A stretch of 64,000 nucleotides of DNA from Escherichia phage vB_Eco_OMNI12: the sequence record OL362041.1. One strand, 5' to 3'. Every line of letters begins with the position of its first letter. The first letter of the stretch is position 1. Shown here piece after piece: positions 6,258 through 64,000 of the stretch. Position numbers and translations under genes: made by a program. Below the pieces are notes generated by a model. That model made no database searches, was not told the DNA's origin, and was given only the letters and a program-made list of their open reading frames with translations.

Positions 6258-7769
6258 ATGACTGACATTAAAGTACATTTTTATGATTTTAGTCACGTGA
6301 GAATTGATTGCGAAGAAAGTACATTTCATGAACTCCGTGATTTCTTTAGCTTTGAAGCTGATGGGTATCGTTTTAATCCGAAGTACAAATATGGCCACTG
6401 GGATGGACGAATTCGTCTTTTAGATTATAATCGCCTTCTTCCATTCGGTTTAGTCGGGCAAATTAAAAAGTTCTGCGATAACTTTGGCTATAAAGCCTGG
6501 ATTGACCCACAGATTAACGAAAAAGAAGAATTATCAAGAAAAGATTTTGATGAATGGCTTTCTAAATTAGAAATCTATTCAGGAAATAAAAGAATTGAAC
6601 CGCATTGGTATCAAAAAGATGCAGTGTTCGAAGGATTAGTTAATCGTCGTAGAATTCTTAATCTTCCAACATCCGCTGGTAAATCGTTAATTCAAGCTTT
6701 GCTTGCGCGATATTATTTGGAAAATTATGAAGGTAAAATTCTTATCATTGTTCCAACAACTGCTCTAACAACTCAGATGGCTGATGACTTCGTTGACTAT
6801 CGTTTATTCAGTCATGCAATGATAAAGAAAATTGGTGGCGGAGCATCAAAAGATGATAAATATAAAAATGATGCACCGGTCGTTGTTGGTACATGGCAAA
6901 CTGTAGTAAAACAACCGAAAGAATGGTTCTCACAGTTTGGAATGATGATGAATGATGAATGCCATCTTGCTACAGGAAAAAGTATTTCATCTATCATATC
7001 AGGTTTAAATAACTGCATGTTCAAATTTGGTCTATCTGGTTCATTACGTGATGGCAAAGCCAATATCATGCAGTATGTTGGAATGTTTGGTGAAATATTT
7101 AAGCCAGTAACGACTTCTAAATTAATGGAAGATGGACAAGTAACTGAGTTAAAAATTAATAGTATTTTTCTTCGCTATCCCGATGAGTTCACTACTAAAT
7201 TAAAGGGAAAAACTTACCAAGAAGAAATAAAAATTATTACTGGGCTTAGTAAAAGAAATAAATGGATCGCTAAATTAGCTATTAAGCTTGCACAAAAAGA
7301 TGAAAACGCTTTTGTCATGTTTAAACACGTATCGCACGGTAAAGCTATTTTCGATTTAATTAAAAATGAATACGATAAAGTTTATTACGTATCAGGGGAA
7401 GTTGATACCGAAACCCGCAATATAATGAAAACCTTAGCTGAAAACGGTAAAGGAATAATTATAGTAGCTAGTTATGGTGTATTTTCTACTGGTATTTCAG
7501 TTAAAAATCTGCATCACGTTGTTTTAGCACACGGTGTTAAATCTAAAATTATTGTATTGCAAACAATAGGTCGCGTATTACGTAAACATGGTTCTAAAAC
7601 AATCGCAACAGTCTGGGACCTCATAGATGACTGTGGTGTCAAGCCAAAATCTGCTAATACTAAAAAGAAATATGTTCACTTGAACTATCTTTTAAAACAC
7701 GGCATTGATCGTATTCAGCGCTACGCAGATGAAAAATTTAATTACGTAATGAAAACAGTTAATTTATAA
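6258..7769 (+). CDS. uvsW: UvsW DNA helicase
   Basis: 503 aa; Walker A (PTSAGKS) and DECH box (MMNDECHLATGKS) helicase motifs. Confidence 0.9.
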   Translation: MTDIKVHFYDFSHVRIDCEESTFHELRDFFSFEADGYRFNPKYKYGHWDGRIRLLDYNRLLPFGLVGQIKKFCDNFGYKAWIDPQINEKEELSRKDFDEWLSKLEIYSGNKRIEPHWYQKDAVFEGLVNRRRILNLPTSAGKSLIQALLARYYLENYEGKILIIVPTTALTTQMADDFVDYRLFSHAMIKKIGGGASKDDKYKNDAPVVVGTWQTVVKQPKEWFSQFGMMMNDECHLATGKSISSIISGLNNCMFKFGLSGSLRDGKANIMQYVGMFGEIFKPVTTSKLMEDGQVTELKINSIFLRYPDEFTTKLKGKTYQEEIKIITGLSKRNKWIAKLAIKLAQKDENAFVMFKHVSHGKAIFDLIKNEYDKVYYVSGEVDTETRNIMKTLAENGKGIIIVASYGVFSTGISVKNLHHVVLAHGVKSKIIVLQTIGRVLRKHGSKTIATVWDLIDDCGVKPKSANTKKKYVHLNYLLKHGIDRIQRYADEKFNYVMKTVNL

Positions 7770-7794
7770 GGGCTTCGGCCCTTTGGAGAAAAAG

Positions 7795-16674: not shown

Positions 16675-18732
16675 CTACATCTTGAACTTTTTAGACATTC
16701 CGTTGATGTTAACCAAAGAAGCTAAGATTTGAGAAACTTCGTTTTCCTCTTCTTTTGATTCTTCTACAAGGAATTGATTAAATCCAGCCATTGGACGAAC
16801 TTCACCAGTTTCCATTAGATGGTCGCCATCATATACTGATTCTTCTAATTGTTCAGAAGGAGGAACGATTGTACCTTCGATTAGATACTTGTTATAAGCA
16901 GTTTCTTTCATAAAGTAAGTACTTACTTTATTAATCTTCAGTAAAATTCCACGTGGTAGAATAACTTCAGCTTCTGACGGAAATCCTGATAAATGACCCG
17001 GAACGATAACTTTGATTCGCTCAGCTCCTTTAATTACCATACCCACGCTAGTTTCAGCATCTTCATTAGCATATGTAGAATGACTACCCATATGCATCAA
17101 ATCTTCTGCATCAACGGAACCTTCTCCTTCACCAGAAAATACTGCGCCGGAATCATCTAGAGCCATATAGTTTTTACCATGCTCACCGAAGATATTTGGT
17201 TTAAGCGATGTGGATACGAAGTTCTTGAAATAGAACATTTTATTTTCAATGTTATGACGCAAAGTTTTAAAGGTAACTTCTTGTCCACGGTAAAGTGTAG
17301 TTCCTGGAGGAAGAACTGAACCTTTAGCGAATGCAGAATCAAGCGTCTCAATATGTTTAATAGCTCGTTCCATATATTCTTCACGGGTAGAATCTGGTTT
17401 ACCCAAAAGGAACGAGTTCATTTCAACATATGAATCTGCACAATAATCTTCAATTACATCAGATTCAGCTTGAGTTAATCCTTTTGGAGTTACTTCAGTG
17501 CTTGCGTATTCATATGCCTGAGCAGCAGATTCATTAATCAATTTATAAATGCCATTCATGACAAATTGAATAATAGCTGTCTTTTCATCTGGCGTAGCTT
17601 TAGAACCTTTAACCAAATCATTGATAATTTTCTTAATAACATCAAAGCTATTAGAAATATTAATATCAGCAAGATCGCTTAAAATTTTATCAGTCTTATA
17701 ATCAAAGAATTCTTTATTCTTTAAATATTCTTGAGAACCTTGATATGTTATATCGCTCTGTAACTTGATAGATGGATCACGTAAACGTGCATGGGCTAAT
17801 GCAATATGATTTCGGAAGCTTTCGAGTTCATAATCACTAGATTTAAAACGAGAAGCGCTTCTCATACCGCCTATAGCTCCTTTGCTGAAGTTTGAACCAA
17901 TTTGAATAACGCCAGAGTTCATTGGTCCTTCTGCTTTATACACCGGAACTTTAGATTCAAACTCTTGATATTTCTTAGCAGCGAAGCTATCACCCTGAAG
18001 TGAAGCATCAACAGTAGAATATTGAGCTTGTGCTGCTAATCGACGACTAATTTTAGTTTTCTGAATAACAGCTTGGTCCGTGCGCTTATCATTTTCTAAA
18101 GCAATAGAAGCAGCAACAGCAACAGCTTTAGGAACAGCATTACCTGTTTTAACATCTACATAAACATCACCAACCTTTGATTCAACTTTTGTGAATAACT
18201 CAGTTGAAATAGGAGGTACACCTGGAATGTCTTCTAAATTGGCATTTTTACGATAAACCATAATATATGCGTACTTTTTATCATAATCCCAGATTTCCTT
18301 TAAAAGAACATATCGACCTGCTCCTTTAGTACGTACTAAACGGTCAGCAATAACTTGCATTTGACGAGCAGCGCCATTTGTTTTACTCTTTAGTACGCGG
18401 AATAAGCATGCATCAATTTTATACTGTTTCATTGTTTGAAGAGCAGTATCAAAAACAGCGTTAATGACGCCAATTGGATTTCCACCCAAGTTTCTAAGTT
18501 TAACCAGTGATAATTTCTCGTTGACACCTATCATTACGATATGCATCATTTTATCGCCTGGCTTAACGTTTTTATTCGTATCACCACCAGAGGTGTATGT
18601 ACAAAATCTAAATCCAGGAAGCACGCTTTCTTCGCCGGCTTGAATAGCAAAAATTTGTGGTATTTTATGCTTAGGATTTAAGTTAACAACCGGCGCCGAA
18701 GCGCCGTCAAATAATTCTGTAATAAGTTCCAT
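16675..18732 (-). CDS. Alt-family ADP-ribosyltransferase, second paralog
   Basis: 685 aa; N-terminus MELITELFD like Alt; C-terminal LYRG...FVSTS...EAEVILP (R-S-ExE ART motifs). Confidence 0.8.
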   Translation of the reverse strand: MELITELFDGASAPVVNLNPKHKIPQIFAIQAGEESVLPGFRFCTYTSGGDTNKNVKPGDKMMHIVMIGVNEKLSLVKLRNLGGNPIGVINAVFDTALQTMKQYKIDACLFRVLKSKTNGAARQMQVIADRLVRTKGAGRYVLLKEIWDYDKKYAYIMVYRKNANLEDIPGVPPISTELFTKVESKVGDVYVDVKTGNAVPKAVAVAASIALENDKRTDQAVIQKTKISRRLAAQAQYSTVDASLQGDSFAAKKYQEFESKVPVYKAEGPMNSGVIQIGSNFSKGAIGGMRSASRFKSSDYELESFRNHIALAHARLRDPSIKLQSDITYQGSQEYLKNKEFFDYKTDKILSDLADINISNSFDVIKKIINDLVKGSKATPDEKTAIIQFVMNGIYKLINESAAQAYEYASTEVTPKGLTQAESDVIEDYCADSYVEMNSFLLGKPDSTREEYMERAIKHIETLDSAFAKGSVLPPGTTLYRGQEVTFKTLRHNIENKMFYFKNFVSTSLKPNIFGEHGKNYMALDDSGAVFSGEGEGSVDAEDLMHMGSHSTYANEDAETSVGMVIKGAERIKVIVPGHLSGFPSEAEVILPRGILLKINKVSTYFMKETAYNKYLIEGTIVPPSEQLEESVYDGDHLMETGEVRPMAGFNQFLVEESKEEENEVSQILASLVNINGMSKKFKM

Positions 18733-24746: not shown

Positions 24747-24762
24747 AACATTTTCCTCAGTA

Positions 24763-24778
24763 AGGGGCCAAAGCCCCT
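24763..24778 (-). terminator. Hairpin between early genes
   Basis: AGGGGC-TTTG-GCCCCT on the - strand just after the stop at 24787. Confidence 0.45.
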
Positions 24779-24786
24779 CATTTATT

Positions 24787-59993: not shown

Positions 59994-60144
59994 TAGTAGA
60001 TAACAACACAAATGTTAAATATGCACACATACCCTGAGCTAAAGCTTGCGAAAACACACTGCTGGCATCAATACAGATAGTTAAAACACATGCTACTATC
60101 CAACAAATAAATGAAATAACTCCTAATAATTTTGCGATATTCAT
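59986..60144 (-). CDS. ac: Ac-like small membrane protein (52 aa)
   Basis: GAGGAAAAT-ATG; hydrophobic 52 aa; position between stp and gene 52. Confidence 0.5.
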   Translation of the reverse strand: MNIAKLLGVISFICWIVACVLTICIDASSVFSQALAQGMCAYLTFVLLSTND

Positions 60145-60151
60145 ATTTTCC

Positions 60152-60232
60152 TCACTGGCGTCCGAAGACGCCTTTAGTTTTAAGATTATTACGATAGAAC
60201 TGCATCACGTGTTCGTTGTGGAAATTACTCAT
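60152..60232 (-). CDS. stp: Stp peptide (26 aa)
   Basis: Translation [26 protein letters not shown]; start overlaps the ndd stop (TAATG). Confidence 0.6.
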
Positions 60233-60690
60233 TAATATGCCTGCAAAACGAATTTAAAATTATCAGCCAACATACGGTTCATTTCTTCAAGTGTTTGATA
60301 CTCAGAATGATGATTACGAGTAAACGCTAAAGCTAACTGTCCTTTTCCAAATCCCGTCGTCAGAGGTTTCATCTTAGAAGCAGGCAGATAAAATACTGCG
60401 TATGGAACATTGTTATTTGCAATAGTACGTGCAAGCTGAGACCGACGTTGACGAATATGACTTAGAACTGCACTGAATCCTTGCTTAGAACGCTGATTAC
60501 CTACATAAAATCGTGCAGACACACATGGATTACTAAATGGACGACCATCTAATTTACTTACTAAAAAATAAAATCCAGGTTTAGATAAAATATCTTTATG
60601 CGGAGTTCCCAAAAACCACTCACCACCCTTGATTGTACCAATAACAGTAGCGCCTGCATTATTCAGATCAGTAACAGTCATGTATTTCAT
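60232..60690 (-). CDS. ndd: Ndd nucleoid disruption protein
   Basis: 152 aa from the internal ATG with GAGGAA upstream. Confidence 0.7.
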
Positions 60691-60750
60691 ATTAATTTCC
60701 TCTAAATTATTTTCTACTCCAAGGCCGCATGAATACACGCGGCCATTAAA

Positions 60751-60966
60751 TTAATCGTCGCAGTCGACGCTCAATTCCCAAAACTCTTCTACGGTATAAG
60801 TTTCAGTATCATTTTCAATACAGAAACGTTCATTACTGTTATTTGCTAAAGTAGCATTAACTGTCATTTTTTCGCTAGTGCTCTTAAGAGGTGAAATACG
60901 AATTAACTGATCACCGTTATCTAAACAAAAAATTTCACCAACTTTTACATCTTTAAAACTTTTCAT
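60751..60966 (-). CDS. Hypothetical protein
   Basis: 71 aa ORF. Confidence 0.5.
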   Translation of the reverse strand: MKSFKDVKVGEIFCLDNGDQLIRISPLKSTSEKMTVNATLANNSNERFCIENDTETYTVEEFWELSVDCDD

Positions 60967-61081
60967 AATTCACCTCAAGGAGTATAAAATCCAAACGCAG
61001 TTGTTGACCATCCCATCCAATATGGAAAATTTGCACCAATGTAAAACATAAGAATATAAAACCAACCGCTCAGCAAATTCA

Positions 61082-61279
61082 TCATTTTACACCGTTCCAA
61101 ATTGTTTCAACTACGGATTTTAAACCATTTTGATGAATATCAATTCCGACTACTGTCATCAAATAGATTCCAACTACAACTGAACCTAAGGCAAAAATCA
61201 GCATGAAAATGAATAAAGCCGGAAAAATATTATCGAAAAACCATTCAATAAATGTAAAAGCACTGCGTTTACGCTTCAT
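61082..61279 (-). CDS. Small membrane protein (65 aa from internal ATG)
   Basis: GAGGAAAAT-ATG; hydrophobic core FPALFIFMLIFALGSVVVGIYLM. Confidence 0.45.
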   Translation of the reverse strand: MKRKRSAFTFIEWFFDNIFPALFIFMLIFALGSVVVGIYLMTVVGIDIHQNGLKSVVETIWNGVK

Positions 61280-61286
61280 ATTTTCC

Positions 61287-61400
61287 TCACATAAATCCAA
61301 AGTAAGCGTTTAATACATCAATCATTAAAACGATTGGGAATATACTCAAAACTATTAGTATTATAACTACATTCCATATAGCTTTAACAATCTTTTTCAT
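61287..61400 (-). CDS. Small membrane peptide (37 aa from internal ATG)
   Basis: GGAGGAACAGAAA-ATG directly after the early promoter; MKKIVKAIWNVVIILIVLSIFPIVLM... Confidence 0.4.
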   Translation of the reverse strand: MKKIVKAIWNVVIILIVLSIFPIVLMIDVLNAYFGFM

Positions 61401-61428
61401 TTTCTGTTCCTCCGTAGTTGATAGGGTA

Positions 61429-61457
61429 ATAGTACCACGGAAGAACAGTCTTGTAAA
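61429..61457 (-). promoter_or_regulatory. Early promoter (TTTACA-N17-TACTAT)
   Basis: Read on the - strand. Confidence 0.6.
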
Positions 61458-61643
61458 CAACTTTTTTAAAAATATTCGTAATAAATGTGAATACCAATCA
61501 CTACTGCCGAAACTTGTGCAACCCACCACGCACAAGCAATAAGCACAGAATTCAAAATTTTCATAATAACCTCATCACAAAAGTAAATGTTAAACAAATT
61601 AATGGAATACTAATTAACCAAACGAAACACCAACATAATGAAC

Positions 61644-61907
61644 TCATAGTTCAATCTCAACGATTTCCAAGTGTTTTTGTTTTATTGCCTTTTTAACACA
61701 ATCATGGACTAAATATGACCATGAATCATTATATTCTCCATTAACTAATCGTTGGAGATCTTCACGTGATGATAAGTAAGGTTGATCTGATTCCCATTTT
61801 GATAAAAATACTGCAGTAAAAATATCTCCTTCATCTGTAGTTGAAGTCGTAAATGCAATAAATTCACCGGTAATTTTATGTTTAGCGTAATAAAATTTAA
61901 ATTTCAT
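61644..61907 (-). CDS. Hypothetical protein (87 aa from internal ATG)
   Basis: GGAGGAGTAAAA-ATG after the early promoter at 61935-61963. Confidence 0.5.
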   Translation of the reverse strand: MKFKFYYAKHKITGEFIAFTTSTTDEGDIFTAVFLSKWESDQPYLSSREDLQRLVNGEYNDSWSYLVHDCVKKAIKQKHLEIVEIEL

Positions 61908-61934
61908 TTTTACTCCTCCGTAGCTGATAGTTGT

Positions 61935-61963
61935 ATAGTACCACGGTCCTTGTGGTATGTAAA
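61935..61963 (-). promoter_or_regulatory. Early promoter (TTTACA-N17-TACTAT)
   Basis: Read on the - strand, lies inside the 3' end of the denB ORF. Confidence 0.55.
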
Positions 61964-61981
61964 CTGTTTTGTGAAAATTTT

Positions 61982-62539
61982 TTAAATGGAAAGATACCAT
62001 CCATTGTAGTTGCTTTTTCTTACAACCTTACGAAGGTCTTCTCTGTCACCGATGAACTTCGGAGTGTACTGGATGACACCTGGATGAATTTCTTTAGTGT
62101 TGAATATAATTATACAGTCAGCGACTTGATGATTTAGAATGGGCCCTAGATTTATTCCAGAACCGTATGGATACTCTCCGCTGCATCCTGTTGTTACAGA
62201 AATCCAACGTGAGCCAGTTTGATGTGTCTTAACTTCTACACGAAGCCCACAGTATTTTGGATGTGCTAAAACATCCCACGCGTATGTATATGGATCATCG
62301 ACATCTTCTTGACCTTTATTAACATACCCGCTTAGCCAATCTGCTACAAAAAACTCTGCGTATACAGCAATACGACATCTTTCAATAACTTCTGCTTTAT
62401 CCTGGTTCGGGTTTTGTTTTAAAGAGTATCTTGCAGTATCAGCAATTTTGACCTTCATTTCACTAGTCAAGTCACTGTTCGATAGGGTAAATGTCGGAAT
62501 CTGAAATAGTCTCTGTAAACCCGGATTCGTTTTCTGCAT
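61982..62539 (-). CDS. denB: 185 aa protein at denB position (endonuclease IV candidate)
   Basis: Size and map position between rIIB and ndd. Confidence 0.5.
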   Translation of the reverse strand: MQKTNPGLQRLFQIPTFTLSNSDLTSEMKVKIADTARYSLKQNPNQDKAEVIERCRIAVYAEFFVADWLSGYVNKGQEDVDDPYTYAWDVLAHPKYCGLRVEVKTHQTGSRWISVTTGCSGEYPYGSGINLGPILNHQVADCIIIFNTKEIHPGVIQYTPKFIGDREDLRKVVRKSNYNGWYLSI

Positions 62540-62801
62540 TTAGACTTTCCTTTTTACCACTGAGATAAGCGTTATATACTTTAAGAGTGCCGTAATAAAT
62601 TCGGTCATTTTCATCTAAAGACTCGCGGTCAAGTTCATCGAGCTCCTTTTTATCCATGACTATAACATCATTACAGTAAAGAAACCCAAGTTTTTCGTGA
62701 CCAAACTCAAATTTATTACAGTACACAATATTAGCGTGATGATTTCCGTGCAGTTTAATCTCTTTTATGTCGGAATCACCGATATTCATACAATAAATCA
62801 T
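62472..62801 (-). CDS. Hypothetical acidic protein
   Basis: 109 aa ORF; its 3' end overlaps the denB-like start in another frame. Confidence 0.45.
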   Translation of the reverse strand: MIYCMNIGDSDIKEIKLHGNHHANIVYCNKFEFGHEKLGFLYCNDVIVMDKKELDELDRESLDENDRIYYGTLKVYNAYLSGKKESLNAENESGFTETISDSDIYPIEQ

Positions 62802-62818
62802 AATTTCTCTTAAAACAA

Positions 62819-62834
62819 AAGGGCCGAAGCCCTT
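62819..62834 (-). repeat. GGGC-TTCG-GCCC hairpin, copy 1
   Basis: The ~20 bp AAGGGCCGAAGCCCTTATTT is repeated at 63047. Confidence 0.4.
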
Positions 62835-62837
62835 ATT

Positions 62838-63032
62838 TTATTTGAATTGTGCAATTCTTTTCTCTAGACATTCAGCATAAGATTTCATTGAGATAAACTG
62901 CGAAAGTAACAGTTCTTGCTCAACTGCATTAACTGTTAGAAACTTTGCGCTTTCTAAAAATTTACTCAGTGCATTAATTTTGAGCATTAATTGATCGTAT
63001 TCTTCTTTTACTCGTGCTTGATAACCTAACAT
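62838..63032 (-). CDS. Hypothetical protein (64 aa)
   Basis: ORF flanked on both sides by the same hairpin. Confidence 0.5.
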   Translation of the reverse strand: MLGYQARVKEEYDQLMLKINALSKFLESAKFLTVNAVEQELLLSQFISMKSYAECLEKRIAQFK

Positions 63033-63046
63033 AATTTTCCTCAGTT

Positions 63047-63062
63047 AAGGGCCGAAGCCCTT
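63047..63062 (-). repeat. GGGC-TTCG-GCCC hairpin, copy 2
   Basis: Immediately downstream of the rIIB stop. Confidence 0.4.
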
Positions 63063-63999
63063 ATTTAAATTGTTCAGTAACGTCTTCAACTACTTCGTAT
63101 TGGCAGGTACGCATTTTAGCATCGTTGTAATCAATCGGAATTGATACTACATCACGCGGATGTACTTTAACTTTTACAACTCGGCTAGTTGAACTGCCAA
63201 AGTGACGAATATAAGATTTAGAACACACATGCAGACCGCGAGAACAAGTTTGTGTATCATCGTCATTCACACGAGTACGTGGCATTTTAACTACTTTACC
63301 AGGGCTGTTATCAAAAGTATTTGAATGACAGTCAAAGTAATTACTGCGAACTACTTTCCAAGCATAGAAGTAACCGTCTTCTGTAATTTCAATATCGTTT
63401 GCTACCAAGAAATCAAAGAGTCGAGATACCGCTTTTTGGCTTGGGTTTTCCAACAGATTTTCCAAGAACGGAAAATAGAATTCAAAGTTTTCGCCTTTTT
63501 CCATCGAGTCAAGAATACGATCAACCAAACCAGATCGCAATTCAATATTTTGATAGAACAAGCTTCCACCTTCAATTCGAACATCGCCGGAAATATATTT
63601 TTCAACAGCGCGACGAACATTAATTTTTTGTGCCGCTTCTTCCAACTTATCCGCTACAAGCAGATTAAGAATTTCCTGGAAGTTTGAATGAGTATTAGGA
63701 GTTGCGTTATAAGTTACACCGTCAACAGTAATTGAAATGAATTTTTTAGATGCATTCCAAATAATGTCAGATTTAGCAACTGGAGCAATAACTGCATCGC
63801 TATTAACTTTAACTGTAATATCACCACTAATAGTAACTTTAGGGCGTTTAGCTTCTTCAGCATTTTTCAAAACACGACGGATTGTGTCAACCGATACACC
63901 TTGCCAATCAGCCAATTCCTGCTGGGTGTAATTACCACTTGAATACAGTTTAACAATTTCAGCTTGTTCGTTTTTGGTCAGGCATTTAATATTGTACAT
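63061..63999 (-). CDS. rIIB: rIIB protein
   Basis: 312 aa; MYNIKCLTKNEQAEIVKLYSSGNYTQQELADWQG... recognised as rIIB. Confidence 0.85.
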   Translation of the reverse strand: MYNIKCLTKNEQAEIVKLYSSGNYTQQELADWQGVSVDTIRRVLKNAEEAKRPKVTISGDITVKVNSDAVIAPVAKSDIIWNASKKFISITVDGVTYNATPNTHSNFQEILNLLVADKLEEAAQKINVRRAVEKYISGDVRIEGGSLFYQNIELRSGLVDRILDSMEKGENFEFYFPFLENLLENPSQKAVSRLFDFLVANDIEITEDGYFYAWKVVRSNYFDCHSNTFDNSPGKVVKMPRTRVNDDDTQTCSRGLHVCSKSYIRHFGSSTSRVVKVKVHPRDVVSIPIDYNDAKMRTCQYEVVEDVTEQFK

Positions 64000-64000
64000 A

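Follow-up and report, generated by a model that had tools for sequence, protein, structure and literature searches.

The 20-nt sequence that occurs twice around the small gene denB.1 of Escherichia phage vB_Eco_OMNI12 is best regarded as two ordinary T4-type intercistronic C(UUCG)G hairpins of the early mRNA, termed here HP1 and HP2, and not as the scar of an insertion, a reading to which a probability of about 80% is assigned. The 20-nt identity of the copies is best explained by a preferred design, UAA plus AAGGGC-UUCG-GCCCUU, which recurs elsewhere in the genome, rather than by an insertion event. As such, the feature is already known and ordinary, and both hairpins are public as annotated terminators. 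In the GenBank record of the near-identical phage JB75, both are labelled as rho-independent terminators, and terminators at this locus have also been annotated in R5505, G2540-3, OE5505, fPS-65, and fPS-90.

The repeat and its two hairpins

The window, which denotes the whole 64-kb stretch of DNA that was analysed, belongs, judging by its sequence, to a T4-like phage of Tequatrovirus. Over the 1 kb around the repeats, identity reaches 99.6% with Escherichia phage Ptacy1496 and at least 95% with several hundred Tequatrovirus (T4-like) genomes. Between about 59.8 and 64 kb, according to the ORF list, every gene lies on the minus strand, and the two intergenic regions holding the hairpins are only 28 and 36 nt long, with no promoter-like site disclosed in either of them by a consensus scan. 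The genes and elements of the locus are as follows.

63061-63999, minus strand: rIIB, 312 aa, 100% identical to the rIIB of Yersinia phage PST; its 3' end bears HP1
63047-63066: upstream copy of the 20-nt direct repeat, comprising HP1 with the final rIIB codon AAA and the stop UAA
63046-63063, minus strand: HP1, UAAGGGC-UUCG-GCCCUUA, a 7-bp stem with four G-C pairs, directly at the end of rIIB
63042-63039, minus strand: SD of denB.1, GAGG, 3 nt past HP1
62838-63032, minus strand: denB.1 homologue, 64 aa, ATG start; homologue of T4 denB.1, Pfam PF21825, PHROG 774
62819-62838: downstream copy of the 20-nt direct repeat, comprising HP2 and AAAU, including the final base of the denB.1 stop codon
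62812-62834, minus strand: HP2, AAGGGC-UUCG-GCCCUU (62834-62819), with its U-tract; a 6-bp stem, 3 nt past the denB.1 stop
62472-62801, minus strand: DUF7418 gene, 109 aa, the next gene beyond HP2, with its start codon 10 nt past the U-tract
61982-62539, minus strand: denB, downstream of the DUF7418 gene

The 64-aa ORF between the copies, already listed by the initial annotation, was recovered as the T4 denB.1 homologue, and its match to PF21825 ("crAss001_48 related protein") has an E-value of 5e-19; a PDB sequence search with it gave no meaningful match (best E-value 0.48). The repeat itself was likewise borne out, since the 20-mer AAGGGCCGAAGCCCTTATTT is present as an exact match at both sites and a comparable exact match was found in 0 of 100 shuffled sequences. 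Identity ends at exactly 20 nt, with differing flanking bases on both sides. On the transcribed minus strand, each copy reads AAAUAAGGGCUUCGGCCCUU and forms a C(UUCG)G tetraloop hairpin, in which the core GGGC-UUCG-GCCC is shared and the loop together with its closing pair spells CUUCGG, a loop that had been overlooked initially.

Past rIIB, the minus strand runs CAA UUU AAA UAA GGGCUUCGGCCCUUAACUGAGGAAAAUUAUG, and the rIIB stop codon UAA (63063-63061) constitutes the first three stem bases of HP1. The hairpin is followed by ACUGAGG (UUAACUGAGG), a U-tract being absent, and its predicted fold amounts to -11 kcal/mol (z = -2.9). Past denB.1, the strand runs UUC AAA UAA AAUAAGGGCUUCGGCCCUUUUGUUUUAAGAGAAAUUAUG, where HP2 reads GCCCUUUUGUUUU and is predicted to fold with -11.9 kcal/mol (z = -2.4). 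Eight of the nine nucleotides past the GCCC arm of HP2 are U, and this U-tract, UUUUGUUUU at 62820-62812, includes the final two bases of the stem. In the consensus scan of the minus strand, HP2 was scored as terminator-like and HP1 was not. The claim of the initial annotation that neither copy is followed by a clear T-run on the minus strand thus stands for the upstream copy, behind which GCCCUUAACUGAGG follows, and is contradicted for the downstream copy (AAGGGCUUCGGCCCUU UUGUUUUAAG, with TTTTGTTTT at 62820-62812). The start of the next gene lies 10-14 nt beyond each hairpin, with no promoter between.

Two further relations between the sites were considered and set aside. Long-range pairing of HP1 with HP2 was dismissed, since the tetraloop hairpins that each copy forms locally match or exceed it in stability and would be kinetically favoured. 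The ending Q-F-K-stop (ACAATTYAAATAA) common to rIIB and denB.1 was rejected as a weak trace of duplication: F63 is invariant among denB.1 homologues in its own right, the rIIB of Gaprivervirus ends in EQF, and other genera lack such similarity.

Recurrence in the window and conservation behind rIIB

CUUCGG hairpins between T4 cistrons have been textbook material since 1988, the year in which Tuerk and colleagues reportedly described (PNAS 85:1364) the C(UUCG)G hairpins of the intercistronic regions of bacteriophage T4. It was in T4 mRNA that the UUCG tetraloop was first found, and its stability is exceptional (PMC4371310); a passage of a preprint that cites Miller et al. 2003 summarises the intercistronic C(UUCG)G hairpins of T4 (bioRxiv 10.1101/2022.08.31.505936). 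The hairpins described here resemble them in the phage group, the CUUCGG hexamer, the G+C stem, the intercistronic place, and the genome-wide recurrence, and nothing essential differs, with the copies being identical over 20 nt here and over 16 nt in T4T. The C-G-closed UUCG lies on the transcribed strand, the stem has a predicted stability above background, and the pair forms part of an intercistronic, genome-wide set.

In the window, 29 sites carry the hexamer CTTCGG (CUUCGG in RNA), where 13.4 +/- 3.2 would be expected, and ten of these sites lie within stems of at least 6 bp. By a crude greedy ORF map, according to which the genome is about 95% coding, nine of the ten strong hairpins are placed between a 3-nt overlap with a same-strand stop codon and 59 nt past it. 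The genes that precede these nine are gene 23 (major head protein), hoc, a uvsW-type helicase gene, gp35, ndd, two small ORFs, denB.1, and rIIB; the tenth hairpin (18691-18706) is situated within an alt-like coding sequence, 29 nt past the alt stop. Among 102 stable tetraloop hairpins on the two strands, UUCG is the most frequent loop. The 16-nt core (AAGGGCTTCGGCCCTT; AAGGGCUUCGGCCCUU) has a third copy, which had also escaped the initial annotation, at 7768-7783 on the plus strand, where it overlaps the stop of the uvsW-type helicase gene (6258-7769), 55 kb from the pair and on the opposite strand. A scan of positions 60000-64000 against Rfam (E <= 10) gave chance-level matches only, none of them on the hairpins, and no matching family. 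As a separate observation, the minus-strand junction at 24761-24780 reads UGAGGGGC-UUUG-GCCCCUUA and continues with the same ACUGAGGAAAAU that is found past HP1.

The post-rIIB junction was compared across annotated genomes of eleven other genera and 22 T4-like IMG/VR contigs, the latter having been gathered with the denB.1 alignment. T4 carries both hairpins at the same two junctions, with the copies in T4T sharing the 16-nt core only. Apart from Krischvirus, all T4-like lineages in the sample have a tetraloop hairpin directly behind the rIIB stop, and its stem varies among the groups.

Tequatrovirus: AAGGGC/GCCCUU
Dhakavirus: GGAGGC/GCCUCC
Gaprivervirus and Kanagawavirus: GGGGC/GCCCC
Klebsiella phages and Mosigvirus: GGGGAC/GUCCCC
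Winklervirus: AAGGAGAC/GUCUCCUU
Karamvirus: AAGGGCC/GGCCCUU
Gualtarvirus: AAUGGGC/GCCCAUU

To assess covariation, 17 distinct 24-mers with the loop at their centre, drawn from Tequatro-, Dhaka-, Gapriver-, Kanagawa-, Winkler-, Mosig-, Karam-, and Gualtarvirus and the Klebsiella phages, were aligned without gaps. Compensatory, two-sided changes were found in four of the six stem pairs, and 96% of the cells are paired, a percentage inflated by having taken, for every lineage, the best hairpin of the intergenic region; the invariant CUUCGG and the fixed position are unaffected by this choice. The observed score was reached by 0 of 500 shuffles, and pairing collapses when the 3' partner columns are slid. 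HP1 is thus the end-of-rIIB hairpin that T4-like phages conserve, and it is retained whichever gene comes next, be it denB.1, the DUF7418 gene, or denB.

Proposed roles of the hairpins in the early message

As the searchable literature yielded nothing specific on transcript 3'-end mapping at rIIB/denB.1, termination, stabilisation, and insulation in vivo are roles that we infer. Both hairpins would act in an early minus-strand mRNA running through rIIB, denB.1, the DUF7418 gene, and denB. A G+C hairpin with an immediate U-tract is the hallmark of an intrinsic terminator (reviewed in PMC2988021), and HP2, which is positioned downstream of a gene, is alike to the Rho-independent terminators of the E. 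coli type and qualifies by sequence as a canonical one. No promoter separates HP2 from the DUF7418 gene and denB, which begin a short way downstream; HP2 is therefore probably leaky and would act as an attenuator behind denB.1. Moreover, its hairpin at the RNA 3' end may shield the rIIB/denB.1 message from 3'-to-5' exonucleases.

HP1 differs from the Rho-independent terminators in having no U-tract, and the GenBank label "terminator" is doubtful for it on this account; with the next gene 10-14 nt on, termination at both sites would presumably be partial. Across the relatives, a strong U-tract follows the post-rIIB hairpin in Mosig-, Karam-, Gualtar-, and Winklervirus and in some Kanagawa-like contigs, and it is missing where the denB.1 SD abuts the stem, namely in Tequatro-, Dhaka-, and Gaprivervirus. 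In these three genera, HP1 is most likely a weak terminator or pause site at most and mainly a structural barrier. Since it lacks a U-tract, holds the stop codon in its stem, and has an SD 3 nt downstream, a decay barrier and insulator would be its principal function: the barrier may stabilise the upstream rIIB RNA after processing or decay, while the hairpin would keep the denB.1 SD single-stranded. As the rIIB stop lies within the stem, terminating ribosomes must melt HP1.

Hairpins that stabilise the 3' ends of bacterial and phage mRNAs, for instance the REP elements, are found at the ends of cistrons. By analogy with them, HP1, as a stable stem-loop at a cistron end without a U-tract, would be expected to block PNPase and RNase II, and such a barrier is likely its main role. 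Unlike the REP-type stabilisers, HP1 is much smaller and consists of a single tetraloop hairpin, and it is not known to be bound by a protein.

Extending such a role to both hairpins, so that they would be purely post-transcriptional exonuclease barriers or processing signals with no part in termination, is unlikely. The lack of a U-tract behind HP1 in Tequatrovirus, the great stability of UUCG hairpins, and the genes that begin shortly past both hairpins without a promoter, which imply that read-through must be substantial, are all in keeping with it. They are opposed by the eight U residues within 9 nt of the G-C stem of HP2, by the strong U-tracts of the homologous rIIB hairpin in Mosig-, Karam-, Gualtar-, and Winklervirus, and by U-tract-bearing hairpins of the same type behind gene 23, hoc, and gp35. 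The suggestion of the initial annotation that the copies are RNA processing or stability elements rather than terminators is accordingly reasonable for HP1, given its missing U-tract and its covariation, and untenable for HP2 with its clear U-tract.

Origin of the pair and constancy of denB.1

The initial annotation also took the pair for a possible footprint of a small inserted cassette. In the form considered here, the direct repeats would mark, or still mediate, the insertion and excision of denB.1 by short-homology recombination, in the manner of a promoter-less analogue of the PeSL (promoter-early stem-loop) cassettes of T4-like phages. This reading is quite unlikely. As described by Arbiol et al. 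2010 (PMC2839356) and Comeau et al. 2014 (PMC4122927), a PeSL measures about 100 bp, is composite, includes an early promoter of the sigma-70 type, and is associated with indels that distinguish close relatives. The present locus shares with them the repeated stem-loops round a small non-essential ORF in a hyperplastic T4-like region, where excision is possible in principle, and its stem-loops could serve as terminators, both being present and HP2 having a U-tract. It differs in that a promoter is absent, the intergenic regions measure only 28 and 36 nt, and the genus shows no polymorphism for an indel here; gain or loss of the ORF was not found between close relatives, denB.1 being lost only at the level of genera (Mosigvirus and Karamvirus). 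Membership in the PeSL class was rejected because the promoter is absent and the intergenic regions are too short.

Several circumstances lend the insertion idea some colour. The denB.1 family PF21825 occurs in unrelated phages, and distant relatives pair rIIB with other genes, as in Acinetobacter phage Morttis, where rIIB is followed by a hairpin and then directly by denB. For PST versus T4, an exchange mediated by PeSLs has been suggested at ndd.4/.5, some 1 kb from here (PMC4122927), and a 213-bp deletion between AAAAG microhomologies in the adjacent gene of T4 indicates that short-repeat deletions occur here. Mosigvirus LF82-5 and Karamvirus EnA02 have no denB.1, and their rIIB leads through one hairpin with a U-tract to a DUF7418 homologue, which is the product expected from hairpin-to-hairpin recombination. 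The absence of both denB.1 and one hairpin from these two genera is the sole observation favouring the cassette reading. It fits a joint absence of ORF and hairpin, and any viable deletion would be just as likely to produce it.

The wider comparison of relatives speaks against an insertion. denB.1 with rIIB upstream is syntenic in at least seven genera, and the post-denB.1 hairpin is confined to Tequatrovirus and Winklervirus-like genomes (L007, L036, and L037). Dhaka-, Gapriver-, Kanagawa-, and Marfavirus and the Klebsiella phages have denB.1 with one hairpin only, the next gene in these five groups starting 0-8 nt past denB.1 with no hairpin between. By tblastn at >=80% identity, denB.1 was detected in 496 records and rIIB in 498, so that denB.1 is essentially fixed within Tequatrovirus.

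No deletion allele came to light either. The junction predicted by the cassette idea, which joins rIIB to the DUF7418 gene, is GAACAATTTAAATAAGGGCTTCGGCCCTTTTGTTTTAAG. A megablast search with a synthetic query imitating recombination between the two repeats, run against 50,697 phage records, returned only two-piece matches, with the pieces about 228 nt apart, among the best 30 of 625 records. The exact deletion-junction pattern was found 0 times in IMG/VR and metagenome contigs, where the wild-type junction was found 3 and 8 times, small denominators both.

In addition, the copies show no concerted evolution, as contigs L019 and L020 have the loop UUUG in HP1 and UUCG in HP2, and the T4T copies agree in the 16-nt core only. 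An identical 16-mer stands at the unrelated helicase-gene junction, and another constitutes the HP2 of the distant Winklervirus-like contig L037, whose HP1 is quite different. The initial annotation had itself named hairpins common throughout the genome as grounds for refutation; the type follows at least nine genes in the window, and this commonness therefore tells against the insertion.

A related view, in which the identical hairpins are live recombination substrates that move denB.1 in and out, with the absences in Mosigvirus and Karamvirus as independent products, is very unlikely; if true, it would carry the PeSL concept over to terminator hairpins without further elements. That the hairpins act on the plus strand, as bidirectional terminators halting antisense (late-direction) transcription into the early region, is scarcely credible: behind the copies the plus strand reads ATTTTATTTG and TTTAAATTGT, and both are scored as terminator-like in the scan, but no convincing plus-strand gene ends here, the minus strand holds every long ORF between 59.8 and 64 kb, the loop becomes CGAA instead of the stabilising UUCG, and the conserved features (stop in the stem, SD past the stem) belong to the minus strand.

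For the reading of HP1 and HP2 as ordinary T4-type intercistronic hairpins, the added value is modest, and it resides in an end-of-rIIB hairpin that, with compensatory changes in its stem, is conserved throughout the sampled T4-like lineages save one. The loss of the U-tract beside the denB.1 RBS would provide a clean natural case in which a stabilising or insulating role is separated from termination.

Apparent differences of the hairpins in T4 and Marfa

In the T4 reference genome (AF158101, 2215-2470), both intergenic hairpins depart from those of the window and of T4T (HM137666), the hairpin of rIIB (GGCTTCGGCCC) being short of one G and that of denB.1 (GGGCTTCGGCC) of one C, while the perfect GGGCTTCGGCCC is present in the resequenced T4T and, unlike T4 AF158101, in every other relative. 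The missing G and C are probably old gel-compression errors within G+C hairpins rather than true differences. The rIIB hairpin of Klebsiella phage Marfa (~900-915) was read as GGGGACUUGUCCCC, and its loop is 2 nt short in comparison with the GGGGAC-UUCG-GUCCCC of related Klebsiella phages, which reflects either a true loop change or an assembly error.

Comparable hairpins and the start regions

Two further hairpins of the window were recorded:

24761-24780, minus strand: hairpin at another junction, UGAGGGGC-UUUG-GCCCCUUA, then ACUGAGGAAAAUGUUAUG; layout same as that of the rIIB hairpin
18691-18706, minus strand: perfect hairpin CGGCGC-UUCG-GCGCCG; inside codons 9-14 of a second alt-like ORF (MELITELFDGASAPVV...)

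The 12 nt behind the stem of the former (ACUGAGGAAAAU) match those of the rIIB hairpin, although its loop is UUUG, unlike the UUCG of rIIB. The latter, situated 29 nt past the stop codon of the alt gene upstream, is the sole non-intergenic case among the strong CUUCGG hairpins of the window.

The translation-initiation regions directly 3' of the rIIB and denB.1 hairpins (63027-63038 and 62795-62805, minus strand) were observed to be similar to operators of RegA, for which sequences including the rIIB site AAAAUUAUGUAC and the gene 44 site have been published (PMC3014915). One start region behind a hairpin, AAAAUUAUGUUA, is similar to this rIIB site, and another, AAAUUAUGAUU, has exactly the sequence of the gene 44 site (PMC3014915). 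Such likeness in sequence may be of limited meaning, because many start regions of T4 are A/U-rich in this way.

The DUF7418 gene and the start of denB

The DUF7418 gene (62472-62801, minus strand) carries a 213-bp in-frame deletion in T4 (locus at 2095-2207 of AF158101, minus strand) and T4T, which is bordered by AAAAG(G) microhomology and leaves an unannotated 37-aa remnant ORF (MIYMNIGDSDIKESLNAENESWVTETISDSDIYPIEQ) between denB.1 and denB. The C-terminal part of DUF7418 is the only part matched by the IMG/VR contigs L016-L018, which may harbor a similar deletion. In its long form (185 aa, T4 annotation), denB shares 68 nt (62472-62539) with the 3' end of the DUF7418 ORF, which is read in a different frame, whereas the record of JB75, a near-identical phage, gives denB in a shorter form.

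Distribution of rIIB and denB.1

The rIIB proteins of the window (63061-63999) and of Yersinia phage PST (KF208315) are 100% identical; PST is the phage of the 2014 study on PeSL (promoter-early stem-loop) cassettes. Homologues of denB.1 (PF21825) occur in unrelated phages, including crAss-like Bacteroides phages, Klebsiella phage KP8 and Providencia phage MTT, as well as in G+C-rich environmental contigs (IMG/VR L038-L054 together with phage records), and in none of these examples is rIIB nearby. Therefore, the small gene denB.1 has moved widely among phages.
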